A stretch of DNA of 64,000 bases from the IMG/VR virus record IMGVR_UViG_3300028552_000008, one strand, 5' to 3'. Below, piece by piece: positions 6,243 to 19,387 of the stretch; within the stretch, counting starts at the first letter, position 1; the number at the start of each line of letters is the position of its first letter. The notes beneath the pieces are model-generated. The model was not told the DNA's origin, made no database searches, and worked only from the letters and a program-made list of their open reading frames with translations. The stretch comes from an uncultured virus (IMG/VR IMGVR_UViG_3300028552_000008). Its lineage: Duplodnaviria > Heunggongvirae > Uroviricota > Caudoviricetes. The translations under genes were made by a program, and so were the position numbers.

Positions 6243-8582
6243 TTACTCAAATGATAACTGCTCTTCCAGTTCTTCTGCAAATTTATGGGTCCCAAATCCT
6301 TTGGCATATGCAAGCCCTGGTATTGGAGATGGTCCCTCCAAACTACTAGAAGCTCCAGTATTGACAGCCTTTATTAATCTACGTTCCAGATTAGTACTAT
6401 ATAAGGTATGCATCCAGTCATGTTCATGTGCTGGGACATCTAATAATCTTTGCATTTCTGGTTCAAATTCAGGTTTTGTCTCATTTACCGTAACATAATC
6501 GATATTATGTTTCTTCAACTCATTAATTACAGTACTGGTGATTCTAGTTCCTATTGTATAGTGTAATTCAGGTATTTCCAAGTATAAACCTTGAGCCATA
6601 TCAGTTCTGACCTTCTTACTATTAGTTCTAGGAGAATAGGCTTTCTCCAGTGTATGATAATTTACTATACTGTCTGGCAAGTTATTCCCTAAGCCTTTAG
6701 GATTGGTTATTTTAACATGAGTAATTAAACCTTTACTTATAATATCAAAATTACGTTTATTTATTCCACCTAATTGACTAGTTTCAAATGTATCTTTAAT
6801 AGCTTTGGAGAAATACCTTCTACCTTCTCCAATACCTTTATGCTTTGTTATTTTAGCTGGATTAGGTATACCATCACTTAACACATCACCTTCTTCAACT
6901 AGCTGGCCTGATTTAACCAATACTTTCAAATCTGGGTGTACATAATATTCTTCAAGTTTTCCATTATCATGCTTAATAACTATATAATGACCTCCTTGTG
7001 GTGCTACTCTTACTTCTTCTATCTTACCATCAGAGTCAGCTATTGGGGCTTCATGGACAAATGAATCCGGGATATTAAATAATTGATTGATGTATTTAAA
7101 GCCACCAAATTGATTAGAACCAGTTGCACTACCTCCCTTGTGCTTACTATTATGTACTATTAAGCCATTCGCTAATACAAATAAAGCATCTTTACTATCT
7201 ACTTCAATATCCCAACATTGTATTAATCCTAGATACTCTGGTTTATTGTATAGTACTACCCAATAATCATTTGTAGTAACTACATCTATAGTTTCATCAA
7301 TATCTTTTAGAGGCATTTCTGTTAATACATTACTACATTCCAGGGTTTCACAAAGTATCTTATGATTCTCTGTAGCATATAGTTCAATTACTTTATCTTT
7401 ATTATCTATAAATATATATTTATTAACAGGTTGTAATCCTTGATTGAATAACCTTAGAACTTTGACTGGAGAGGTTTGACCAGCGTTATCAGAGCCAAGC
7501 ACCATATCTCCGACCTTTATATCTTGAATAGCTTTAATAGAATAATCTGCCATTCTTACTAGTGTTCCTTCAGCTAAACAGTTTAACGCCCCTTGTGCTA
7601 CTGGTTCTGCTGCTGAAGTACCGGCAACAACTCCAATAAAAGAATTAAGTTCAGACAAGCCTTTACCTCTGATACCCACACATAATTGACAAAGAGCACT
7701 AGAAGTTCCATCATGACTAGCTTCACAAGTTATAGGATTTCTAACTACAATCTCTTCTATGCCTTTGCTTTTTAGAATACCCAGCATACTAGAGGTAACT
7801 TCATTATTATAGTGATATTTGTCTATAGGATGAGCTAAGAACGAACCGATGTAATCATTATCATTTGTTTTTACAGGTATTCCATTATGAGTACCACAAT
7901 CATGTTCTTCTATCACCATTGTCATGTTTGCTCTAGCTAATTGCTTGCCTAAAAACCCACCTTCTGCCACTGATAATTTTGTGGCCGCGCTGGCTTGTCT
8001 CGCACCAAAAGTATGTGCCAAATATTGGGGCAAGGTTAATCCTTCAGCAAAAGATCTATCAATAATAAAATCAGTTAGAATACCGCCTTTATTATCGTTA
8101 ACGGCTACTGGGGAGAAAATAGTTTGACGATATTGTTCGGGACTCCCTCTCGCTCCGGCTTTAACTACCTTGGCTAGAGTCTTATTATCTTTAAGGCCTT
8201 CTTCTATTATTTCCTTATTTGCAGTGTCAGAAAACTTGTTGAGCAAATTTGTTAGTTCATCATCTTCTTTCTTTTTAGGTAACTTTTTATCCTTTATGCT
8301 CTTAATCTCTTTATTGAGTTCTTTAAATCTCTCATCTTTAAAGGAGGGTGGAAGCAAGTCACCTAGTCTGACAGTACTACCCAACCTAGTAGCTGATTCA
8401 AACCCAAGTCTAGTTAAATCTGATACTACTTTCTTATAACTATCTTCATTATGCTCTGCTAAATTAGAGAAGAAAGCACCTATATTCTTCTTATCCAAAT
8501 CTTTGCTTTCTATAAATGAATGAGAGTTAGCAGGAGAGTAATGCTTAAGCAGGATTTTGCCTACTGTTGTTACCTCAGACAT
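6243..8582 (-). CDS. rpoC: RNA polymerase beta' C-terminal fragment, intein-containing
   Basis: KAGARGS; SFAEGLT..Y...FGARQ; bridge-helix-like TKLSVAEGGFLGKQL; Zn ligands EHDCGT and C...LCQLC; trigger-loop region AEPVAQGALN|SKHKGG. Confidence 0.92.
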   Translation of the reverse strand: MSEVTTVGKILLKHYSPANSHSFIESKDLDKKNIGAFFSNLAEHNEDSYKKVVSDLTRLGFESATRLGSTVRLGDLLPPSFKDERFKELNKEIKSIKDKKLPKKKEDDELTNLLNKFSDTANKEIIEEGLKDNKTLAKVVKAGARGSPEQYRQTIFSPVAVNDNKGGILTDFIIDRSFAEGLTLPQYLAHTFGARQASAATKLSVAEGGFLGKQLARANMTMVIEEHDCGTHNGIPVKTNDNDYIGSFLAHPIDKYHYNNEVTSSMLGILKSKGIEEIVVRNPITCEASHDGTSSALCQLCVGIRGKGLSELNSFIGVVAGTSAAEPVAQGALNCLAEGTLVRMADYSIKAIQDIKVGDMVLGSDNAGQTSPVKVLRLFNQGLQPVNKYIFIDNKDKVIELYATENHKILCETLECSNVLTEMPLKDIDETIDVVTTNDYWVVLYNKPEYLGLIQCWDIEVDSKDALFVLANGLIVHNSKHKGGSATGSNQFGGFKYINQLFNIPDSFVHEAPIADSDGKIEEVRVAPQGGHYIVIKHDNGKLEEYYVHPDLKVLVKSGQLVEEGDVLSDGIPNPAKITKHKGIGEGRRYFSKAIKDTFETSQLGGINKRNFDIISKGLITHVKITNPKGLGNNLPDSIVNYHTLEKAYSPRTNSKKVRTDMAQGLYLEIPELHYTIGTRITSTVINELKKHNIDYVTVNETKPEFEPEMQRLLDVPAHEHDWMHTLYSTNLERRLIKAVNTGASSSLEGPSPIPGLAYAKGFGTHKFAEELEEQLSFE
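7149..7580 (-). mobile_element. Mini-intein (144 aa, no endonuclease) in beta' C fragment
   Basis: Starts CLAEGTLVRMAD; block B ATENHKI; ends WDIEVD...LANGLIVHN followed by Ser. Confidence 0.92.
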
Positions 8583-10895: not shown

Positions 10896-10911
10896 ATAAG
10901 GTCTTCTTCTT

Positions 10912-12633
10912 TCATTTCTCTATTTCTATGTTGTCTCCTGGCTCTAAATCACCTCTGTTATATGCAGCAACTACTTCTTGTTCAGTTTTATATTTTTTAG
11001 GAGTGTTATGTTTGTTTTCTGTACTTAGTCCATAAAGGCCCAAAGCTGCTTCATTACTAGGGATTAATACAGGTTGAAAAGATTTAACAGATAATAAATT
11101 TTTGCTAGGCATCATTTTAGCTATAACTTCTTTACGTGCTTCTTCAGTGCCTGGAATATGGACATTAAGTTGGTCTCCGTCGGAATTTTTTGTATATCCT
11201 CCTATAGTTAAGAAACTTCCGTAGTTTGGTATTTCCAAATCGTAAGCAGTATTAGATTGTAACTTAGTTACTCTTTTAACTTTCTTCCATTTTAAACTAC
11301 CATTATACACCTTACCTAAATATGATATCCATTGTTCATTATTCTTTAACTCAACTAGAAGTATTTCAATTATTTCTTTTAAAGTGCTTTTACGAAATCT
11401 ATCTGTTTTAAATTCCTGGCTTAATCTATATTTTAAATTATAAAGTTCCTTATTCTTTTGTAATTTATATTTATTATTAATAGCTGTAATTATATTTTTT
11501 TTAACAGTTTCTGAAGGAAGTGGTACTAAGTCATTAAAGTTATCACCTATACCTGTTATATCTTTTAAGCTATTCTCTAATTTTTCCTTCTTCAACTCAT
11601 GACTTATTCTAAATTTTGTTCTTTCAACTAACTTTTTAAATGTCCCAGTATGAAATCTGAAGGAGAAATTATCTTTACTACTCAGCCTAGATGCCCCTTT
11701 ATATACTCCATAATTTAAATTTAACCGTTTACTCATATATCTTAAACCGTTAATTAAATGAATTGATGATGTGCAGATACTTATATTTATAACTGTTTTA
11801 TTAGAAGAACTGACACTTACTGTTCCATCAGTTGAGATTAACCCATCTAATATACCTAGTAGATGTTCTTCAGGACCGTTTAAACTAAAAGTAGGTATTT
11901 TCTTATTAAAAGCTCCACTCCCTATCTGCTCTTTTAACCACTTATTAAACCAGGCACAAGAAGCTCTAGTTTTACCTCTAGAAGTAAATTGCCCCATCAT
12001 ATTCTCACTAACTCTATCTATTTCTTTAACTCCATTTTCATAAGGAAGATATTCACTATTACATAAATCAGCAAATACTTTTCTATTCATTAATTTTTCT
12101 TTGGTAGAACCGGCTAAGAAAAGTTGATTAGCATTATCTACCCAACCATCACCTAAAACCATTCCTATAAAAAGTCCGGTTTTATAATTAAGTTGCAAGT
12201 TAAATGAATTTTTAACAAATCCTTTTCCTCGTATTCCTTTCATTCCTCTAGTACCCATCATACCTTCAGCTAATACACTTGATTGAATATTGGGTGCTAT
12301 AGTTGTAACATCACTAGGACAATACCTACCTACTGCCTCTTCGGTATCAACTTCTTCAATACCACTATCAGTATAAGCTAATAAACTATGATCTTTGGCT
12401 GCAAATATAAAATCCCCATCTATAAATTGTACCAAATATAAAGGTACATTAGGATGAATCGAGAATGTCTTTGGATTTACCCAATCTACTTCACCAGTTA
12501 TAAGGTTTAATGATTTTACTTCTACATTACTAGGTACATCATAAAGGATATTACCATTTATAGTAGTAGTGGCTGAATTTTCTATTCTAGGGAAATCTGA
12601 AATAGGTACTAGTGTATATTTATAATTAATCAT
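10912..12633 (-). CDS. Split-intein C part (483 aa, with LAGLIDADG endonuclease) fused to a 90-aa RNA polymerase beta' piece starting SDGDQ
   Basis: Block B AKDHSLL; LAGLIDADG-type motifs FIGMVLGDGW and ILDGLISTDGT; blocks F/G AYDLEIP...GYTKN; then SDGDQLNVHIP..EARKE....MMPSKNLLS. Confidence 0.9.
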   Translation of the reverse strand: MINYKYTLVPISDFPRIENSATTTINGNILYDVPSNVEVKSLNLITGEVDWVNPKTFSIHPNVPLYLVQFIDGDFIFAAKDHSLLAYTDSGIEEVDTEEAVGRYCPSDVTTIAPNIQSSVLAEGMMGTRGMKGIRGKGFVKNSFNLQLNYKTGLFIGMVLGDGWVDNANQLFLAGSTKEKLMNRKVFADLCNSEYLPYENGVKEIDRVSENMMGQFTSRGKTRASCAWFNKWLKEQIGSGAFNKKIPTFSLNGPEEHLLGILDGLISTDGTVSVSSSNKTVINISICTSSIHLINGLRYMSKRLNLNYGVYKGASRLSSKDNFSFRFHTGTFKKLVERTKFRISHELKKEKLENSLKDITGIGDNFNDLVPLPSETVKKNIITAINNKYKLQKNKELYNLKYRLSQEFKTDRFRKSTLKEIIEILLVELKNNEQWISYLGKVYNGSLKWKKVKRVTKLQSNTAYDLEIPNYGSFLTIGGYTKNSDGDQLNVHIPGTEEARKEVIAKMMPSKNLLSVKSFQPVLIPSNEAALGLYGLSTENKHNTPKKYKTEQEVVAAYNRGDLEPGDNIEIEK

Positions 12634-12639
12634 ATAGAC

Positions 12640-12668
12640 ACAATACGGTGACTAGTTGAACTTGTCAA
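12640..12668 (-). promoter_or_regulatory. Sigma70-like promoter at the intein split point
   Basis: TTGACA (12668-12663), 17-nt spacer, TATTGT (12645-12640), 6 nt, then ATG at 12633. Confidence 0.75.
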
Positions 12669-15418
12669 TTAATTTTCTCTCTATAAATAATATAATCTAC
12701 AATACTATCCGCACCATACCCCTTAAATACTAATGGATTCATTTTAATAGTTTTATCTTTAGAATTTGGATTAGCAATTAAATTAAACCCTAATAGATTA
12801 TATTTATGCCAGGCTGGATCTCGCGTTATAATACCAGGTCTTACTGCCATCTCTTCCTTTAATGCCATAACTGCTAATGGACTATGTTTTTTAACATAAT
12901 CAACCGCACTAATAGCTGGTACACCCTTCATAACCAACCTTCTAATAACAAAAGGTTTATATATCTGCCACAGCATATCTTGAGGTACACTAGCCTGGTC
13001 TACATCCAATCTAGTATCTGGAGTTAACACAGCTCTTCCCACCAAATCCAGACTCTTATTAACCACCTTACTCTGAAACATTGTACTTTTAGCCGTTCCA
13101 CCCTTTAATCCAAACATAGTAGCTAATATACCTTTAACATTCTTATCCTGGTGTTTCTTATTAATTGGATCACCCAAACCAAAGGCAGCTTTTACTCCAT
13201 CATATTCATTTTGTTTTAATTTCCTAACTACTTCGTCCGGCACATTCTCAGTATTTTTAAGTGCATTGTTATTTAGTATGAGGTCTTTATATAGATTATT
13301 AACATCACTAGTTAATACTACATCACCCATCTTACTAGCAGGTCTGTATTGGGCTGGTAGAATAGGTACTTTATGCAACATCAAATCTTTAGGATGTAAC
13401 TTATGTTCTTTTAGTGTAGTGAGAAATTCTAACAATTTAACGGCATCATCTCTTCTAGTCTTCTTCTCACTACCTATATACTTCTTCATTTCTTCTATCT
13501 TCTTATCCAGATCTATATTATTAAGGGCTTTTTCCATTTCCCCATCCACTACCATATCATTAAACTTAAACTTGGTAACTCCTAACAACTTTCTGAGATA
13601 ATCCTCACTAATAGGATTAGGTATGGGATGATTAAGATTTATGTGATTAAACTTGTCACCTAATATGCCTATTATATTAGGATCAAATAGTCCGCCAGGT
13701 TCATGTATTAGTTCTTCTTGATGTGGCTTGAATAATGAAGGTTTCTTAATTTCACCATTACTCAAAGCAGTAGTATCCTTATCTGTTAAAGGTAGGATAT
13801 TAAAGGTATTACCAACTCTATCTACATTAATACCGGCAGCTTTTAAACTATCTATGAACTTGTTAAAGATGAATGGAACTTTAGGGCTGGGTGGGGTTTG
13901 GCCCAATTTAATAGCACGCCAGAATTCATCATTCTGAGTACCTTTAACAGTACCTATATCCTCCAATACATGTCTGACATCATGACTTAGCAAAGCTGTA
14001 GTACCTAAATTTCCTATTCTCTTTGATGAACCACCTTCCACTGCTGACTTACTTGGTTGCCGGTCGAAACTGTATCCGGACCCCTGACTTCTAGTACTTA
14101 GTTTATCTTCACTAATATGAGTTAACCTACTATAGAATAATGGACCTACAACTGCTTCAATATTTCTACCAGTAATTGGATCATATAGTTGTTCAGTATC
14201 ATTTATATTATTCTTCTTTAATACATTAATTACATTCTTAATAGATGAATCCTTTCTAAACTGATCCATTTTAATAGTCTTACCAGTCTTCTCAGCTAAT
14301 TTACCAAGGCCTAGAGTTATGGCTAAGGCTGGTGCAACTCTTGACGTGATGGACATGGAGTTAAGCATGATATCAACTGGCTTCCCATTAGGTAGTAGTG
14401 GAGCTTGTGAGTCTGATACAATCTTCGTTACACCCTTAGCTCCAAAGTAATTAGAAATCTTATCACCAGGTAATAGACTTCTTACCGTCTTGATATGTAC
14501 TGTAATAAGTGGGCCATGTTTGGTTACATCCACTACTTCTCCATCATGTTCGTAGTCCCAGGCTTCTGAATTATCTTTGAATGCATGTTTTAATACTTTA
14601 CTCAGCTTACCTAATGCCAAATCTGTACTCTTTAATGCTCTGGGTGAGTAAGCCAGGATTACCGGGTCTCCAGCTTTCAATCTAGACCCTACTATAACCA
14701 CTCCATCTGAATCTATATTTTTAATTTGATTATTCGTATATTTATTAGGAAATAGTGCTACAAATTTATCCTTGCCTGCCTCTACTCCAAATTTCTCTTC
14801 AATACTAAAATTGATCATTTGTTCTGCTGCCAACTTTTTAGCACCACTTTCAGTCACTGCAAAAGCATCCTCAAAGTTGTCTGAGCGGTACGGGATTATA
14901 GCAGTAGTAAGGTTAGTTCCCATCGCCATATTACCTTCTTTATCATTATAATTACTGTAAGCTATTACTTCATTAGTTTTAACTTTATCACCAACCTTCA
15001 CTTTAGGGGTATGAGTAATAAAGCTTTTCCTGCCTAAATGAAAGTTATTATATAGTTGATAGGTAGACTTGGTTTTATCTGTATTATCTACTTTAATATG
15101 ATTTTCAGTAACTTCAGTAACAGTACCAGGTTTAGTTGCAGTTACAGATAAATAATGTTTACCATATAGTTCTTGAGTACTTTCTTTGTTAGTGTCATCT
15201 GAACTTTCTACTAACGGACGTTCAGGATTTACTAAAGGTATAGCTTGGAGAGAAGCCTTGGCTCCTAGTAACACACGCCCGCCGGAAACTGAATTTAGCC
15301 CAGTAATCATGTTAGTAGGTAAAGCAAATAAATCCCTACTCGAAGGCATGGATATATGATCTTCATTTAGTTTGTCCACCTTCTCAAAATTTCCCTTATT
15401 AAGTACAGTATAACTCAT
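12665..15418 (-). CDS. RNA polymerase beta C-terminal half fused to beta' N-terminal part, ending in a 13-aa IntN
   Basis: Beta motifs LQAIPL, DNFEDA, GDKISNYFGAKG, DIMLN..SITSR, QPSK...GGSSKRIG; beta' motifs GGLFDP, VPILPAQYRP, GRAVL, RDPAWH, NPLVFKGYGAD; start chosen at MSYTV after TATAAT. Confidence 0.92.
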   Translation of the reverse strand: MSYTVLNKGNFEKVDKLNEDHISMPSSRDLFALPTNMITGLNSVSGGRVLLGAKASLQAIPLVNPERPLVESSDDTNKESTQELYGKHYLSVTATKPGTVTEVTENHIKVDNTDKTKSTYQLYNNFHLGRKSFITHTPKVKVGDKVKTNEVIAYSNYNDKEGNMAMGTNLTTAIIPYRSDNFEDAFAVTESGAKKLAAEQMINFSIEEKFGVEAGKDKFVALFPNKYTNNQIKNIDSDGVVIVGSRLKAGDPVILAYSPRALKSTDLALGKLSKVLKHAFKDNSEAWDYEHDGEVVDVTKHGPLITVHIKTVRSLLPGDKISNYFGAKGVTKIVSDSQAPLLPNGKPVDIMLNSMSITSRVAPALAITLGLGKLAEKTGKTIKMDQFRKDSSIKNVINVLKKNNINDTEQLYDPITGRNIEAVVGPLFYSRLTHISEDKLSTRSQGSGYSFDRQPSKSAVEGGSSKRIGNLGTTALLSHDVRHVLEDIGTVKGTQNDEFWRAIKLGQTPPSPKVPFIFNKFIDSLKAAGINVDRVGNTFNILPLTDKDTTALSNGEIKKPSLFKPHQEELIHEPGGLFDPNIIGILGDKFNHINLNHPIPNPISEDYLRKLLGVTKFKFNDMVVDGEMEKALNNIDLDKKIEEMKKYIGSEKKTRRDDAVKLLEFLTTLKEHKLHPKDLMLHKVPILPAQYRPASKMGDVVLTSDVNNLYKDLILNNNALKNTENVPDEVVRKLKQNEYDGVKAAFGLGDPINKKHQDKNVKGILATMFGLKGGTAKSTMFQSKVVNKSLDLVGRAVLTPDTRLDVDQASVPQDMLWQIYKPFVIRRLVMKGVPAISAVDYVKKHSPLAVMALKEEMAVRPGIITRDPAWHKYNLLGFNLIANPNSKDKTIKMNPLVFKGYGADSIVDYIIYREKIN

Positions 15419-15860: not shown

Positions 15861-16530
15861 GTTAGATGCATTTATTAATGGTTTTATCAAGGCTGCTGGC
15901 CCACTCCCTCCACCTCCTCCACCTCCTACACCTCCTACACCTCCAAAAATTCCGATGATTTCATTACCACACAATGCTTATACTGTTGGTGGTCTCCCTC
16001 CAAATATGCATAATTTTGTTAATAAAGGTGGTAATACCCTTAATATAAATGCTCACGGTGGTCCTGATAGTGCTATTAATGGAGAATATGCATTTCAAAG
16101 TGATTCTAATAATTCTAAAAACTTGCTTTATAACAATGAACCACTAACTTATACTCCTCAAACATTGGCTAAACTTATTGGTCCAGCTACTAACAATATC
16201 AATAATATTTATACTACTGCTTGTAATGGTGGGGATTGCTCCAATACTAATGTGAGTCCAAACGAAGTGCTTAAAGGGTTTGCTACTCCAGCTATGTACC
16301 GTAAATTATTCCCTAATCTTACTAACGTTGTTCAAATCCCTCCCAGGCATTATGGTCCATTAATTCCAAGTCAATTTAAGACTAATGAATACCCAGACGT
16401 AGTGAATATAATAAATAGAATTATTAAAGATAGGAATCCTAATGATCCAATAACTACAAGCTTGCCTCATCAATATAATCTACAAGGTGGTACTAATTGG
16501 GTGGATAAAGGGACTTACTATAATTACTGA
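15853..16530 (+). CDS. Protein with DAFINGFIKAA leader, poly-Pro linker and putative caspase-fold (clan CD) His-Cys domain
   Basis: LNINAHGG...TPQTLAKLI...INNIYTTACNGG pattern. Confidence 0.5.
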   Translation: MNKLDAFINGFIKAAGPLPPPPPPPTPPTPPKIPMISLPHNAYTVGGLPPNMHNFVNKGGNTLNINAHGGPDSAINGEYAFQSDSNNSKNLLYNNEPLTYTPQTLAKLIGPATNNINNIYTTACNGGDCSNTNVSPNEVLKGFATPAMYRKLFPNLTNVVQIPPRHYGPLIPSQFKTNEYPDVVNIINRIIKDRNPNDPITTSLPHQYNLQGGTNWVDKGTYYNY

Positions 16531-16531
16531 T

Positions 16532-19387
16532 ATGACAGACCGACACAATGTATATGTAGTTGAATTGGATAAGGAGGTCTTAGCTAAAAAAAAGTTTTTA
16601 AAGTTGAATCCTAACTACAATCCAGAACTACCTCCACTTTATGTAGGAGAGACTGGTTTGAGTCCTGAAGCTAGATTCGAGAAACATAAAACTGGACTAA
16701 AAGCCAATATCTGGGTAAAGAATCATGGGCTTAGACTTAGGCCTGAACATTATAAAGATTTAAATCCCATGCCATTTCATAAAGCTGAAAGAACCGAGGA
16801 ATGGTTGGCAAAGAAGTTAAGGGCTGAGGGTTATCCAGTAGTAGGTGGGAATCCTAGAACCGTACCTTTGAAGAAGGAGGCTGGTGAAGAAGCGTTACAA
16901 CCTCAACAAGCTAGAGTAATTAAGAAGATTCAAGATAAGAATACTTCAGGGTTAGTGCTTTATCATGGGATGGGTAGTGGAAAAGGATTGGTTATAGGCT
17001 CAAAGATATTAACACCTACAGGGTGGATAAATATAGAAGATATAAAACAAAACACAGAAGTGATTTCTGTTAATGGTGTGAAAGCTAATGTGACTGGAGT
17101 CTATCCTCAAGGGTATAAAGATGTGTATAAAATTACTTTTAGGGATGGTGCTACTATAGAATGTGATGATTCTCATTTATGGTTCACTCAATCTAGATGT
17201 GAACGTAAAAATTACGTTAAAAGCAAGGATCAATTTAAATATAGGTGGGTAGGTAAAGTCAGGAGTACAAGCGAAATTAAAGATACAGTATTATCTAATG
17301 ATAATAGTTTAAATTATACTATTCCTATTGTGAAACCTATTCATTTTAAATATAGAAAACTTCCACTAGACCCGTATTTTGTTGGTTTGATTTTAGGAGA
17401 TGGTAGTATTTGTGGAGGTGGCTGTGCGATAACAACAGCAGATGACGAAATTCTGCAATCAATTAAGTCTTTATTTCCAAATTTTACTCTTAAAAAATAT
17501 TCTAAATATACTTATGGATTAGGTAAACCAAAAGGATATAACAGTTACATTGTTCAAGCATTTAAAGAATTAAAATTACAAGGTATGAATTGTTTTACAA
17601 AATTTATACCTGATATTTATATGTTTAACACAGTGAAATCTCGCATAGCATTATTACAAGGGTTAATGGATACTGATGGTACTGTAAGTAAAGATGGTAT
17701 GGCTATAGTTTATGAGTCCGTCTCAAAACAGTTAGCAGATGGTGTGCAATTCCTTGTTGAATCACTAGGAGGTTTAGCAAAGATAACAACTAGAATTCCA
17801 ACATATTCATATAAAGGAGAAAAAAAGAAAGGAGCTTTATGTTATAGGGTTTGGTTAAGTTTACCACCAAATATCAATCCATTTAGATTACACAGAAAAG
17901 CAATTCAAGTAATTCCTAAGACTAAATATAAACCAACTAGATATATAAAAAGTATAGAATATGTTGGAAAAAAAGAGACAATCTGTATTGCAATCGATGA
18001 CCCTTCTCATCTATATATTACTGAACATTGTATAGTTACGCACAATACACGCGAAAGTATTGAATCCTGGAAAGCATTAGGATTACCTAAGACTGATATC
18101 ATTGTTCCAGCTTCATTAAAATCCAACTATCGTAAAGAGTTGCAGAGATGGTATGGCAATTCTAATCCTTCTAATATCAACTTAATTAGTCAACAAAGAT
18201 TTGCTAATTCTAAGTTAAATACTCCAATATACAATACTGGTTTGCAGATAGTAGATGAAGCTCAAAAAGCTAAAAATAGTAATAGTGAATTATATCAAGC
18301 ATTGGTTAAAACGAATCCAGCCAAGCGCCTTCTCCTTTCAGGAACTCCAATTCTAAATGATCCTACTGAATTAAGTAATCTTGTTAACTTAGTAGCAAAG
18401 AAACAAGTATTACCTAATAATTTATCTGAGTTTAAAAAACAATATTTTAAACAGGAAGAAGTTAAACCTGGATTTTTTGGTAGATTAATGGGAGTTTCTC
18501 CAGGCATTCAATATAAGCTACAGAATAAAGCTCAACTATCTAAGATTCTGGATAAGTATGTTGACTACTATAAACCTACTCAAGAAGGATATCCTACTGT
18601 GACGGAGCAAGAAGTTAATGTTCCTATGGGTGCTAAACAACAAGAGATATATGATACAATACTCGGAAAGACACCATTTTGGACACGTTATCGAATTAAA
18701 CATAATTTACCTCCTGGACGTGGTGAATTAGAAGGTATGCGAGCATTTTTAAGTGGACCTAGACAAGTAAGCAATTCAACTGCTGGATTTACTAAAAATT
18801 TAAGAGACGTGGAATCCCCTAAAATAGATGCAGCTTTTAAGTTTTTACAAATACAATTAAAACAAGATCCAAACTATAAAGCTCTAGTATATAGTAATTA
18901 TCTTAATAATGGTCTTAGACCTTATGAATCATTATTAAGAAAGAATAATATACCATTTGGAGAGTTTAGTGGAGCTGTAACACCTACTATAAGAGACCAG
19001 GCAGTTAAAGATTATAATGCTAATAAATTAAGAGCATTATTAGTATCAGGAGCTGGGGCTGAAGGATTGGATTTGAAGGCTACAAATTTGACACAACTTT
19101 TGGAACCTTTTTGGAACCTTCCTAAAGAGAGACAAGTTATCGGAAGATCAGTACGTTTCCATAGTCATGATAGTTTGCCTCCAGAAAAGAGAAAGGTTTT
19201 AGTGCAACGTTATTTTGCCACACCAAAACCTAGTTTATTGGATAAACTTACATTCAATCCCAAACCTACTGGTACAGATTCATATATTAGAAATTCAATC
19301 AGTAAACCAAAAGATAATCTTAATCAAGAAATAACTAATTTAATAGCCAAGAATCAAGAACCTAAATCTTGGCTTAACTACAATTAA
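16532..19387 (+). CDS. SNF2-like SF2 helicase with N-terminal GIY-YIG-like domain and an intein
   Basis: VYVVEL...LYVGETG...RFEKH; YHGMGSGK|T; IVDEAQ; LLSGTP; GAEGLDL; QVIGRSVR. Confidence 0.9.
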   Translation: MTDRHNVYVVELDKEVLAKKKFLKLNPNYNPELPPLYVGETGLSPEARFEKHKTGLKANIWVKNHGLRLRPEHYKDLNPMPFHKAERTEEWLAKKLRAEGYPVVGGNPRTVPLKKEAGEEALQPQQARVIKKIQDKNTSGLVLYHGMGSGKGLVIGSKILTPTGWINIEDIKQNTEVISVNGVKANVTGVYPQGYKDVYKITFRDGATIECDDSHLWFTQSRCERKNYVKSKDQFKYRWVGKVRSTSEIKDTVLSNDNSLNYTIPIVKPIHFKYRKLPLDPYFVGLILGDGSICGGGCAITTADDEILQSIKSLFPNFTLKKYSKYTYGLGKPKGYNSYIVQAFKELKLQGMNCFTKFIPDIYMFNTVKSRIALLQGLMDTDGTVSKDGMAIVYESVSKQLADGVQFLVESLGGLAKITTRIPTYSYKGEKKKGALCYRVWLSLPPNINPFRLHRKAIQVIPKTKYKPTRYIKSIEYVGKKETICIAIDDPSHLYITEHCIVTHNTRESIESWKALGLPKTDIIVPASLKSNYRKELQRWYGNSNPSNINLISQQRFANSKLNTPIYNTGLQIVDEAQKAKNSNSELYQALVKTNPAKRLLLSGTPILNDPTELSNLVNLVAKKQVLPNNLSEFKKQYFKQEEVKPGFFGRLMGVSPGIQYKLQNKAQLSKILDKYVDYYKPTQEGYPTVTEQEVNVPMGAKQQEIYDTILGKTPFWTRYRIKHNLPPGRGELEGMRAFLSGPRQVSNSTAGFTKNLRDVESPKIDAAFKFLQIQLKQDPNYKALVYSNYLNNGLRPYESLLRKNNIPFGEFSGAVTPTIRDQAVKDYNANKLRALLVSGAGAEGLDLKATNLTQLLEPFWNLPKERQVIGRSVRFHSHDSLPPEKRKVLVQRYFATPKPSLLDKLTFNPKPTGTDSYIRNSISKPKDNLNQEITNLIAKNQEPKSWLNYN
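16985..18046 (+). mobile_element. Class 3-type intein (354 aa) with LAGLIDADG endonuclease, in Walker A
   Basis: Inserted in GSGK|T; starts GLVIGSKILTPTGW; DSHLW; GLILGDGS; LLQGLMDTDG; TICIAID; ends IVTHN. Confidence 0.9.

Follow-up and report, generated by a model that had tools for sequence, protein, structure and literature searches.

A predicted atypically split intein in the catalytic loop of a phage RNA polymerase subunit encoded by two reading frames

How two genes can together encode one active-site motif is the question raised by a locus of the uncultured Caudoviricetes virus IMGVR_UViG_3300028552_000008, a peat phage of which a stretch of 64,000 nucleotides (nt), called the window here, was analysed. 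The gene of a fused RNA polymerase (RNAP) beta/beta' subunit was interrupted inside its DxDGD motif, the first aspartate being encoded at the end of one open reading frame (ORF-N) and the last two in another (ORF-C), while the intervening coding sequence resembled an intein cut in two pieces, IntN and IntC. We regard it as probable, from the sequences and models presented below, that the locus encodes an atypically split natural intein of class-1-like type, using Ser1 and Ser+1, and that the DxDGD loop is rebuilt by trans-splicing. The initial annotation of this DNA had claimed that the loop exists only after trans-splicing through a 13-residue IntN; as a prediction, this claim survived the computational tests, its basis being reproducible DNA, a conserved split, contiguous homologues, invariant residues, the fold, the co-fold and a single DxDGD locus in the 151 kb searched.

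Locus and reading frames

Both ORFs and all parts of the putative intein were located on the minus strand (window positions):

12707..15418, minus strand: N-extein, RNAP beta C-part and beta' N-part, ending with ...GYGAD, of which the Asp is the first of the DxDGD triad
12668..12706, minus strand: IntN, 13 codons (SIVDYIIYREKIN), with the putative Ser1 nucleophile and first beta strand
12665..12667, minus strand: TGA stop of ORF-N, the same in three other assemblies
12634..12664, minus strand: non-coding gap of 31 nt, all three frames being stopped between the ORFs
12640..12668, minus strand: sigma-70-like TTGACA-17-TATTGT, a lead only, overlapping the TGA, with a start predicted near the A of ATG 12633
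11185..12633, minus strand: IntC, 483 residues from MINYKYT... to ...GGYTKN, with the predicted remainder of the HINT fold and a nested nuclease
11299..12201 (approximate limits), minus strand: nested LAGLIDADG homing-endonuclease domain, motifs LFIGMVLGDGW (D162) and LLGILDGLISTDG (D269)
10915..11184, minus strand: C-extein, SDGDQLNVHIP..., the final 90 residues of the subunit, with Ser+1 and the last two Asp of the triad
10912..10914, minus strand: TGA stop of ORF-C, as read from the sequence

ORF-N (12665..15418, 917 codons) extended from ATG 15418 to TGA 12667-12665. It was given an extended start at TTG 15460 in the ORF listing; ATG 15418 was taken as start because relatives start at the matching residue. 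Its product ended with ...NPLVFKGYGAD-SIVDYIIYREKIN. ORF-C (10912..12633, 573 codons) started with ATG 12633-12631 in the +1 frame relative to ORF-N and displayed the intein/extein boundary ...GGYTKN/SDGDQLNVHIP (slashes mark intein borders from here on). The ORF ends, the 13-codon IntN, the +1 frame and the junction residues had all been stated in the initial annotation and were borne out by the sequence. Since each half had an ORF to itself, complete with start and stop, the element was considered naturally split.

Three-frame translation uncovered a TAG (12654-12652) in the frame of ORF-C, downstream of the TGA of ORF-N. Because this TAG interrupts the ORF-C frame past the ORF-N stop, a single frameshift cannot fuse both ORFs, in agreement with the earlier statement that no single indel joins them. 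Alternative genetic codes were considered and rejected: with TGA read as sense, frame 0 meets two TAA, 12 and 14 codons past the TGA; with TAG read as sense, the codon concerned sits in the frame of ORF-C and not in that of ORF-N.

Exteins and the polymerase subunit

ORF-N matched Pfam RNA_pol_Rpb2_6 (expectation value (E) 4.8e-45) as well as Rpb1_1 and Rpb1_2. The N-extein was 79% identical to the intein-less relative P0010, and the C-extein was 69% identical to residues 889-984 of the same protein. The C-extein start SDGDQLNVHIP aligned with FDGDQMAVHVP of solved bacterial beta' (E about 3e-9), in which the loop reads NADFDGDQMAVHVP. In Salmonella phage Arash, gp206 (30% identical) was uninterrupted (..GYAADYDGDALSMYLP..) and ended about 90 residues later. 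The exteins aligned as one continuous protein with Arash gp206, with intein-less relatives of ~990 amino acids (aa) and with bacterial beta'. Joined, they give GADSDGDQ, and these alignments to continuous homologues confirmed the initial assignment of that sequence to the Mg-binding loop.

A search with ORF-N residues 600-931 yielded 170 proteins. Among the 120 relatives listed, most were ~990 aa long and uninterrupted, displaying GADNDGDQ, GGDCDGDQ, NADADGDQ or GADSDGDQ. Because of these relatives, the position equal to bacterial Phe has to be considered variable in this phage family: it was N, C, A or S in intein-less members. The earlier description of a Ser replacing Phe consequently holds against bacteria, but not within the phage family.

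An intact DxDGD subunit elsewhere, together with a lack of trans-splicing, had been named beforehand as counter-evidence. Such a subunit was sought in the 151-kb record G001, which contains the window (CheckV estimate, 69% complete): no second DxDGD gene was found in these 151 kb of a ~218-kb genome, PF00623 and P0010 matching this locus only. On sequence grounds, the polymerase gene at this locus is predicted to be needed. Passages of PMC10585845 place the homologous Arash proteins Gp206 and Gp216 with the most abundant ones that were detected in its virions; by homology to Arash, the polymerase considered here may be packaged in the virion as well.

The same polymerase displayed a second intein. 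The gene of the beta' C-part (6243-8582, minus strand; Pfam Rpb1_5) contained a contiguous mini-intein (...AQGALN/CLAEGTLV...LIVHN/SKHKGG), with Hint-module matches at residues 329-420. A SNF2-type helicase gene (16487-19387, plus strand) contained a contiguous LAGLIDADG intein beside its GSGK motif, with a probable start at SKILTPTGW and an end at ...CIVTHN/TRES. Three inteins were found in this way inside 13 kb, in the beta/beta' loop, the beta' C-part and the SNF2-type helicase. Relatives P0009, P0030, P0044 and P0114 carried other contiguous inteins in the beta part of the same subunit, at the points ..GYC/FDNETEV...SHN/SFD and ..GDK[LV]/CLT...TGN/SNAWGAKG, and for this reason the polymerase gene appears as a repeated intein target.

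Split relatives and contiguous homologues

The split was also encountered in other metagenomes. The N-fragments P0013 and P0014 (75% and 72% identical over the whole protein) ended with ...GFGAD-STIDYIVYREKLTS and ...GFGAD-SVIDHIIYREKLTS, respectively, their IntN being 14 aa long (S[TV]ID[YH]I[IV]YREKLTS); seven of 13 IntN positions were invariant in the three sequences. The C-fragments P0005 (57%) and P0006 (56%) spanned the whole ORF-C and began with MNNYKYT and MNTYKYT, in register with its MINYKYT, three residues preceding YKYT. The longest contig was given as 9834 for both P0014 and P0006, and we infer that their genes lie side by side. Scans of IMG/VR and of the JGI metagenomes gave the same phage, JGI also giving intein-less relatives or fragments.

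An extein tree with 38 rows was computed with FastTree; P0114 and P0128 were added to those members of P0008-P0045 that reached 850 aa, P0032 and P0039 being excluded for their shortness. In this tree one clade (Shimodaira-Hasegawa-like support of 98), lying within the intein-less rows, comprised the three split rows, and its end branches measured 0.17-0.25 changes per column. Since the split rows form a single clade, the split would have arisen once and persisted with both ORFs open and conserved.

Contiguous intein homologues were found at the same AD/S.../SDGD point in P0128 (1436 aa), which reads ...AGAD/SILGVVKVYEQGEGKFVNIADVP...ILYQ/SDGDQ, and in P0249 (2056 aa), which reads ...FNLD/SMLGEIFIINVEERGLVTKVIDISEFPRIEN...ALYD/SDGDT. 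Relatives with a contiguous intein and relatives with none, both of which the initial annotation had proposed to look for, do therefore exist. P0128 matched the intein profile at E 3.5e-112 with 41-42% identity. Both proteins shared with the window intein the insertion point and homologous HINT and LAGLIDADG parts, but their inteins were uninterrupted and ended in Gln or Asp instead of Asn, and their exteins fell in other branches of the family than the split clade. The stretch running from Ser1 up to the Pro of the conserved motif DFP measured 23 residues in P0128, 27 in P0249 and, with IntN and the beginning of IntC taken together, 28 in the window; these similar lengths place the break in the turn of the first hairpin.

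Among cultured phages, megablast of the locus gave no match, and tblastn of IntC gave three weak matches of the nuclease domain in unrelated genes. About a dozen proteins of 520-600 aa from a search of representatives, starting just before DFP, were considered as further split cases and were not counted: five of the ten looked up lay on contigs of 1.6-3.4 kb, and two shared a 90% cluster with ~2000-aa proteins uninterrupted at the same point.

Within the RNAP Mg loop, the intein family (P0129-P0279) had two insertion points separated by four residues. The first was AD/S.../SDGD, found in the window clade, P0128 and P0249. The second, DFDGD/x...(N or D)/(T or S)MNxHVP, accounted for most matches, many of them in fusion proteins of 1900-3500 aa. 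Inserts after D.DGD numbered 67; their first residue was S, C or T in 41 and another one in 26 (Q in eight, A in five, and others), and some of these inserts may, from their sequences, be degenerate or non-splicing.

The junction in DNA and RNA contigs

The 241 bases spanning the junction were 100% identical in all three other IMG/VR contigs. All sampled words of the locus were present in 14 peat-metagenome DNA runs, which are not independent because all 14 were flagged as possible sources. Contigs of one DNA run (X1) and of three RNA libraries were aligned on 10900-13400. A contig of X1 and RNA-library contig X17 record 18 (12599-12938) both ran through the stop, the gap and the start without any difference; neither joints nor indels were reported for the contigs of the four runs across 10900-13400. 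The read-mapping check suggested in the initial annotation, done here with contigs, thus kept the split junction and uncovered no continuous ORF. Removal of the gap at the RNA level is argued against by the X17 contig, bearing in mind that RNA libraries can contain DNA and that contigs lose rare variants. Both ORFs were covered by RNA-library contigs; the parts lacking such cover in single runs are uninformative, and the libraries may contain DNA.

An intron or RNA element in the gap was ruled against: no Rfam match was obtained, the predicted RNA fold was ordinary (-10.0 vs -8.2 +/- 2.5 for shuffles) and joints were absent. Two RNA contigs of different runs had adjacent ends inside the gap, X15 record 7 ending at 12648 and X16 record 13 starting at 12649. 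An RNA end or a processing site is weakly suggested between these positions, which X17 and the DNA run read through.

No evident AGGAG-like Shine-Dalgarno sequence was seen by eye, no motif search having been made, at the 42 gene starts printed from the window, and its absence before ATG 12633 is normal here for that reason. In terms of sequence this hints at a host with Shine-Dalgarno-independent initiation. The guanine plus cytosine (GC) content of the window was 35.8%. The TTGACA-17-TATTGT site in the gap displayed 10 of 12 matches to the sigma-70-like consensus. Sigma-70-like sites were not enriched in the region (18 found vs 29.3 expected in shuffles), and a promoter in the gap was not retained: the site is present, yet the region holds fewer such sites than chance.

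Intein features and structure predictions

Ser1, H82 (block B), D465 (block F), N483 and Ser+1 were invariant in the three split versions, D465 being so in all 26 alignment rows. With Ser1 and Ser+1, the window and both relatives hold the nucleophiles of a class 1 intein. H60 was invariant in the split versions and nearly invariant in the 26 rows; the same applied to the Asp residues of the LAGLIDADG motifs, D162 (..VLGDGW) and D269 (..ISTDG). Pfam detected LAGLIDADG_3 at residues 258-316 of ORF-C (E 8.4e-8; 32.8 bits, above the cut-off of 22.5).

The AlphaFold2 model of ORF-C, built with the 26-row alignment, reached a mean predicted local distance difference test (pLDDT) value of 81.6, residues 1-10 being coil. 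Its best Foldseek matches were nuclease-bearing inteins, namely 7qss (TliVMA, E 4.4e-18), then 2cw7, 1dq3 and PI-SceI; I-SceI, I-DmoI and PI-SceI were also matched as nucleases. No sequence kinship to solved inteins was found at E <= 10 when IntC was compared by phmmer with all PDB chains. From its two motifs and its fold, ORF-C is predicted to carry a LAGLIDADG homing endonuclease, and the earlier remark that IntC still contains such a domain was supported by both the Pfam and the fold matches.

ORF-C was then co-folded with the last 50 residues of ORF-N, using our own three-row alignments. The score was 0.82 vs 0.00 for the best of three controls, a result that may reflect likeness instead of binding of this very pair, because solved split inteins exist. 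Of 157 solved complexes 116 attained this mark, as did two of 215 mismatched pairs, a calibration that is rough only, given the own alignments. The runs shared at least 39% of contacts, with a partner pLDDT of at least 41. On the ORF-N chain the interface was formed by residues 904-916 only; on IntC it comprised residues 2-12, 36-40, 60, 76-83, 461-465 and 474-481, and so included H60. The 13-mer paired with IntC 5-11 and 36-40. At the level of a model, the co-fold supports association of IntN and IntC. HINT alignment and co-folding, both suggested by the initial annotation, thus led to an intein fold with the 13-mer docked on it.

Alternative explanations

Several points weigh against trans-splicing. 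Splicing is deduced from sequence and models; the ORF ends of the relatives are known from gene calls in the protein collection, not from their DNA; and the search for a second beta' gene covered 151 kb of the ~218-kb genome. The Pfam Intein_splicing match on ORF-C (E 2.7e-6, 27.7 bits) was below the cut-off of 35.8. The block-B Thr was replaced by Ala or Gly (AKDH or GKNH), with His82 kept in all three versions, and the penultimate residue was Lys or Cys, not His, with the terminal Asn present in all three. In passages of PMC10189870, the Ser1-specific NX motif is described as a conserved His preceded by Arg or Lys; the candidate H60 was preceded by Ile or Val. Lastly, a 7-nt repeat (ATTAATT) flanks the gap, and the AAT before the TGA recurs as codon 3 of ORF-C.

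The two halves could also associate without ligation, either through non-covalent assembly of the RNAP or because IntC merely cleaves off the C-extein, which would then join the N-fragment. A block B devoid of Thr and the lack of a penultimate His would fit such a scheme, as would the 26 of 67 inserts after D.DGD that start with a non-nucleophile, since they indicate that non-splicing derivatives may exist. We nevertheless hold it to be unlikely: Ser1, Asn483 and Ser+1, invariant in the three split versions, are required for splicing chemistry only, and a 496-residue insert or a free 13-residue tail inside a five-residue metal-binding motif would, judging from aligned solved RNAPs, be hard to square with catalysis.

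Bypassing of a stop by the ribosome is known from gene 60 of T4, with matched take-off and landing codons, a stop after the take-off codon and a take-off stem-loop. Recoding of this kind, from the AAT before the TGA to the AAT 40 nt downstream, would produce one chain (...YREKIN-YKYTLVP...) and cis-splicing. The matching codons, both within the ATTAATT repeat, and the stop directly after take-off are in its favour, and the resulting 25 residues to the Pro of DFP would lie between P0128 (23) and P0249 (27). It is nonetheless very improbable. The relatives end with ..KLTS* and begin with MNN or MNT, which leaves no matching codon pair at the amino-acid level, whereas the initiator Met occupies the same position in all three split versions. 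The RNA fold is ordinary and without Rfam match, a 7-nt repeat made of A and T only is weak evidence in DNA of 36% GC, and the two-chain co-fold is confident.

The locus might instead be a gene in decay or a product of faulty assembly or sequencing, since a stop and frame change within a domain resemble a broken gene and the ~67 kb outside the paralogue search leave room for an intact copy; this view is largely refuted and hardly credible. Three other assemblies show identical DNA, whose sampled words all occur in the 14 (non-independent) DNA runs. Both ORFs remain open and conserved in a clade whose end branches measure 0.17-0.25 changes per site. The C-extein shares 69% identity with an intein-less relative, the locus is the sole one with PF00623 in 151 kb, and RNA-library contigs cover both ORFs.

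Comparison with known inteins

The IntN of canonical split inteins is ~100 aa long. VidaL, AceL-TerL and GOS-TerL (TerL, terminase large subunit) are phage-derived and are not known to carry a nuclease domain. In passages of PMC13014065, natural atypically split inteins are listed with IntN of 15 (PolB16), 16 (VidaL), 25 (AceL-TerL) and 37 aa (GOS-TerL); the same passages mention an engineered IntN of 11 aa and name PolB16 as the only natural cysteine-less atypically split intein. The 13-residue IntN, described as extremely short in the initial annotation, does fall below this natural range of 15-37 aa, of which 15 aa was the shortest according to the parts consulted of PMC13014065 and PMC10189870.

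The closest counterpart was PolB16 OarG (Pasch et al. 2023, passages of PMC10189870), also natural, metagenomic, split near its N-terminus and endowed with Ser1/Ser+1 and class-1 motifs. Its IntN of 15 aa is described there as the shortest characterised, against 13 in the window and 14 in the relatives; its host is a PolB DNA polymerase instead of RNAP beta', its IntC has 168 aa and no nuclease instead of 483 aa and a LAGLIDADG domain, and the residue before its NX-motif His is Arg or Lys, as against Ile or Val before the window candidate. As far as described in passages of PMC13014065 and PMC11766414, VidaL, AceL-TerL (its source being a saline lake in Antarctica) and GOS-TerL are likewise natural and environmental, with a short IntN, a long IntC and a split after the first HINT strands; they are cysteine-dependent (Ser1/Cys+1 in GOS-TerL), in contrast to the Ser1/Ser+1 pair found here.

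In the 'fractured genes' (Dassa et al. 2009, PMC2677866, as cited in other papers), the host gene is also broken into two ORFs at an intein, with a homing nuclease at the locus. In these a free-standing homing-endonuclease gene lies between the split-intein halves and the break is at the nuclease site, whereas the window displays 31 nt and no gene between the halves, a nuclease nested in IntC at the usual insertion point and a break near the N-terminus. The solved inteins TliVMA (7qss), PI-TkoII (2cw7), PI-PfuI (1dq3) and PI-SceI (1vde) resemble the model of ORF-C in combining HINT with a nested LAGLIDADG domain (E 4.4e-18 to 5e-11), but are cis-splicing single chains with Cys1 and only 8-16% sequence identity to ORF-C.

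Natural split inteins are described as lacking nuclease domains in passages of PMC8966425. In the literature searched, which did not cover all journals, neither an intein in this loop of any phage RNAP nor a natural split intein with a nuclease inside it was found described. Compared with the known atypically split inteins, the element predicted here would be new in its shorter IntN, its retained nested LAGLIDADG domain and its host site.

Proposed mechanism and significance

According to the trans-splicing explanation, two polypeptides would be made, one consisting of the N-extein and the 13-residue IntN, the other of the 483-residue IntC with its LAGLIDADG domain and the 90-residue C-extein. 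The 13-mer would dock as the missing first HINT strand on IntC 5-11 and 36-40. An N-O acyl shift at Ser1 would be followed by transesterification to Ser+1, and cyclisation of Asn483 would excise the intein and leave ...GYGAD joined to SDGDQ..., which would restore the D-x-D-G-D triad. A contiguous, nuclease-bearing intein at this point would have become split a single time, the split form then being passed on through the phage clade.

With the nuclease lying inside IntC and a gap of no more than 31 nt, the entire cassette of two ORFs could still be mobile by homing as a single DNA unit. A bolder proposal, which we put forward as doubtful, is that of a mobile split intein: an active nuclease would home the stop-gap-start cassette into intein-less RNAP alleles, the break would be kept for timing or quality control during assembly of a virion-packaged polymerase, and the 13-residue Ser1 IntN would be the shortest natural trans-splicing tag, its catalytic residues requiring no cysteine. 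A post-translational switch for the polymerase, mentioned in the initial annotation, is pure speculation.

Split inteins with a short IntN are sought by protein chemists because peptide synthesis gives access to the short piece, and a fast, cysteine-independent one is still lacking according to passages of PMC13014065 and PMC10189870. With its Ser1/Ser+1 pair, an IntN of 13 or 14 residues and three diverged versions, the intein described here is a direct candidate for a ligation tool. If the trans-splicing prediction is correct, a split intein can retain a nested homing nuclease, and two genes can between them encode one essential motif of an active site. In large phages, the Mg loop of the RNAP would be a recurrent landing site for inteins.

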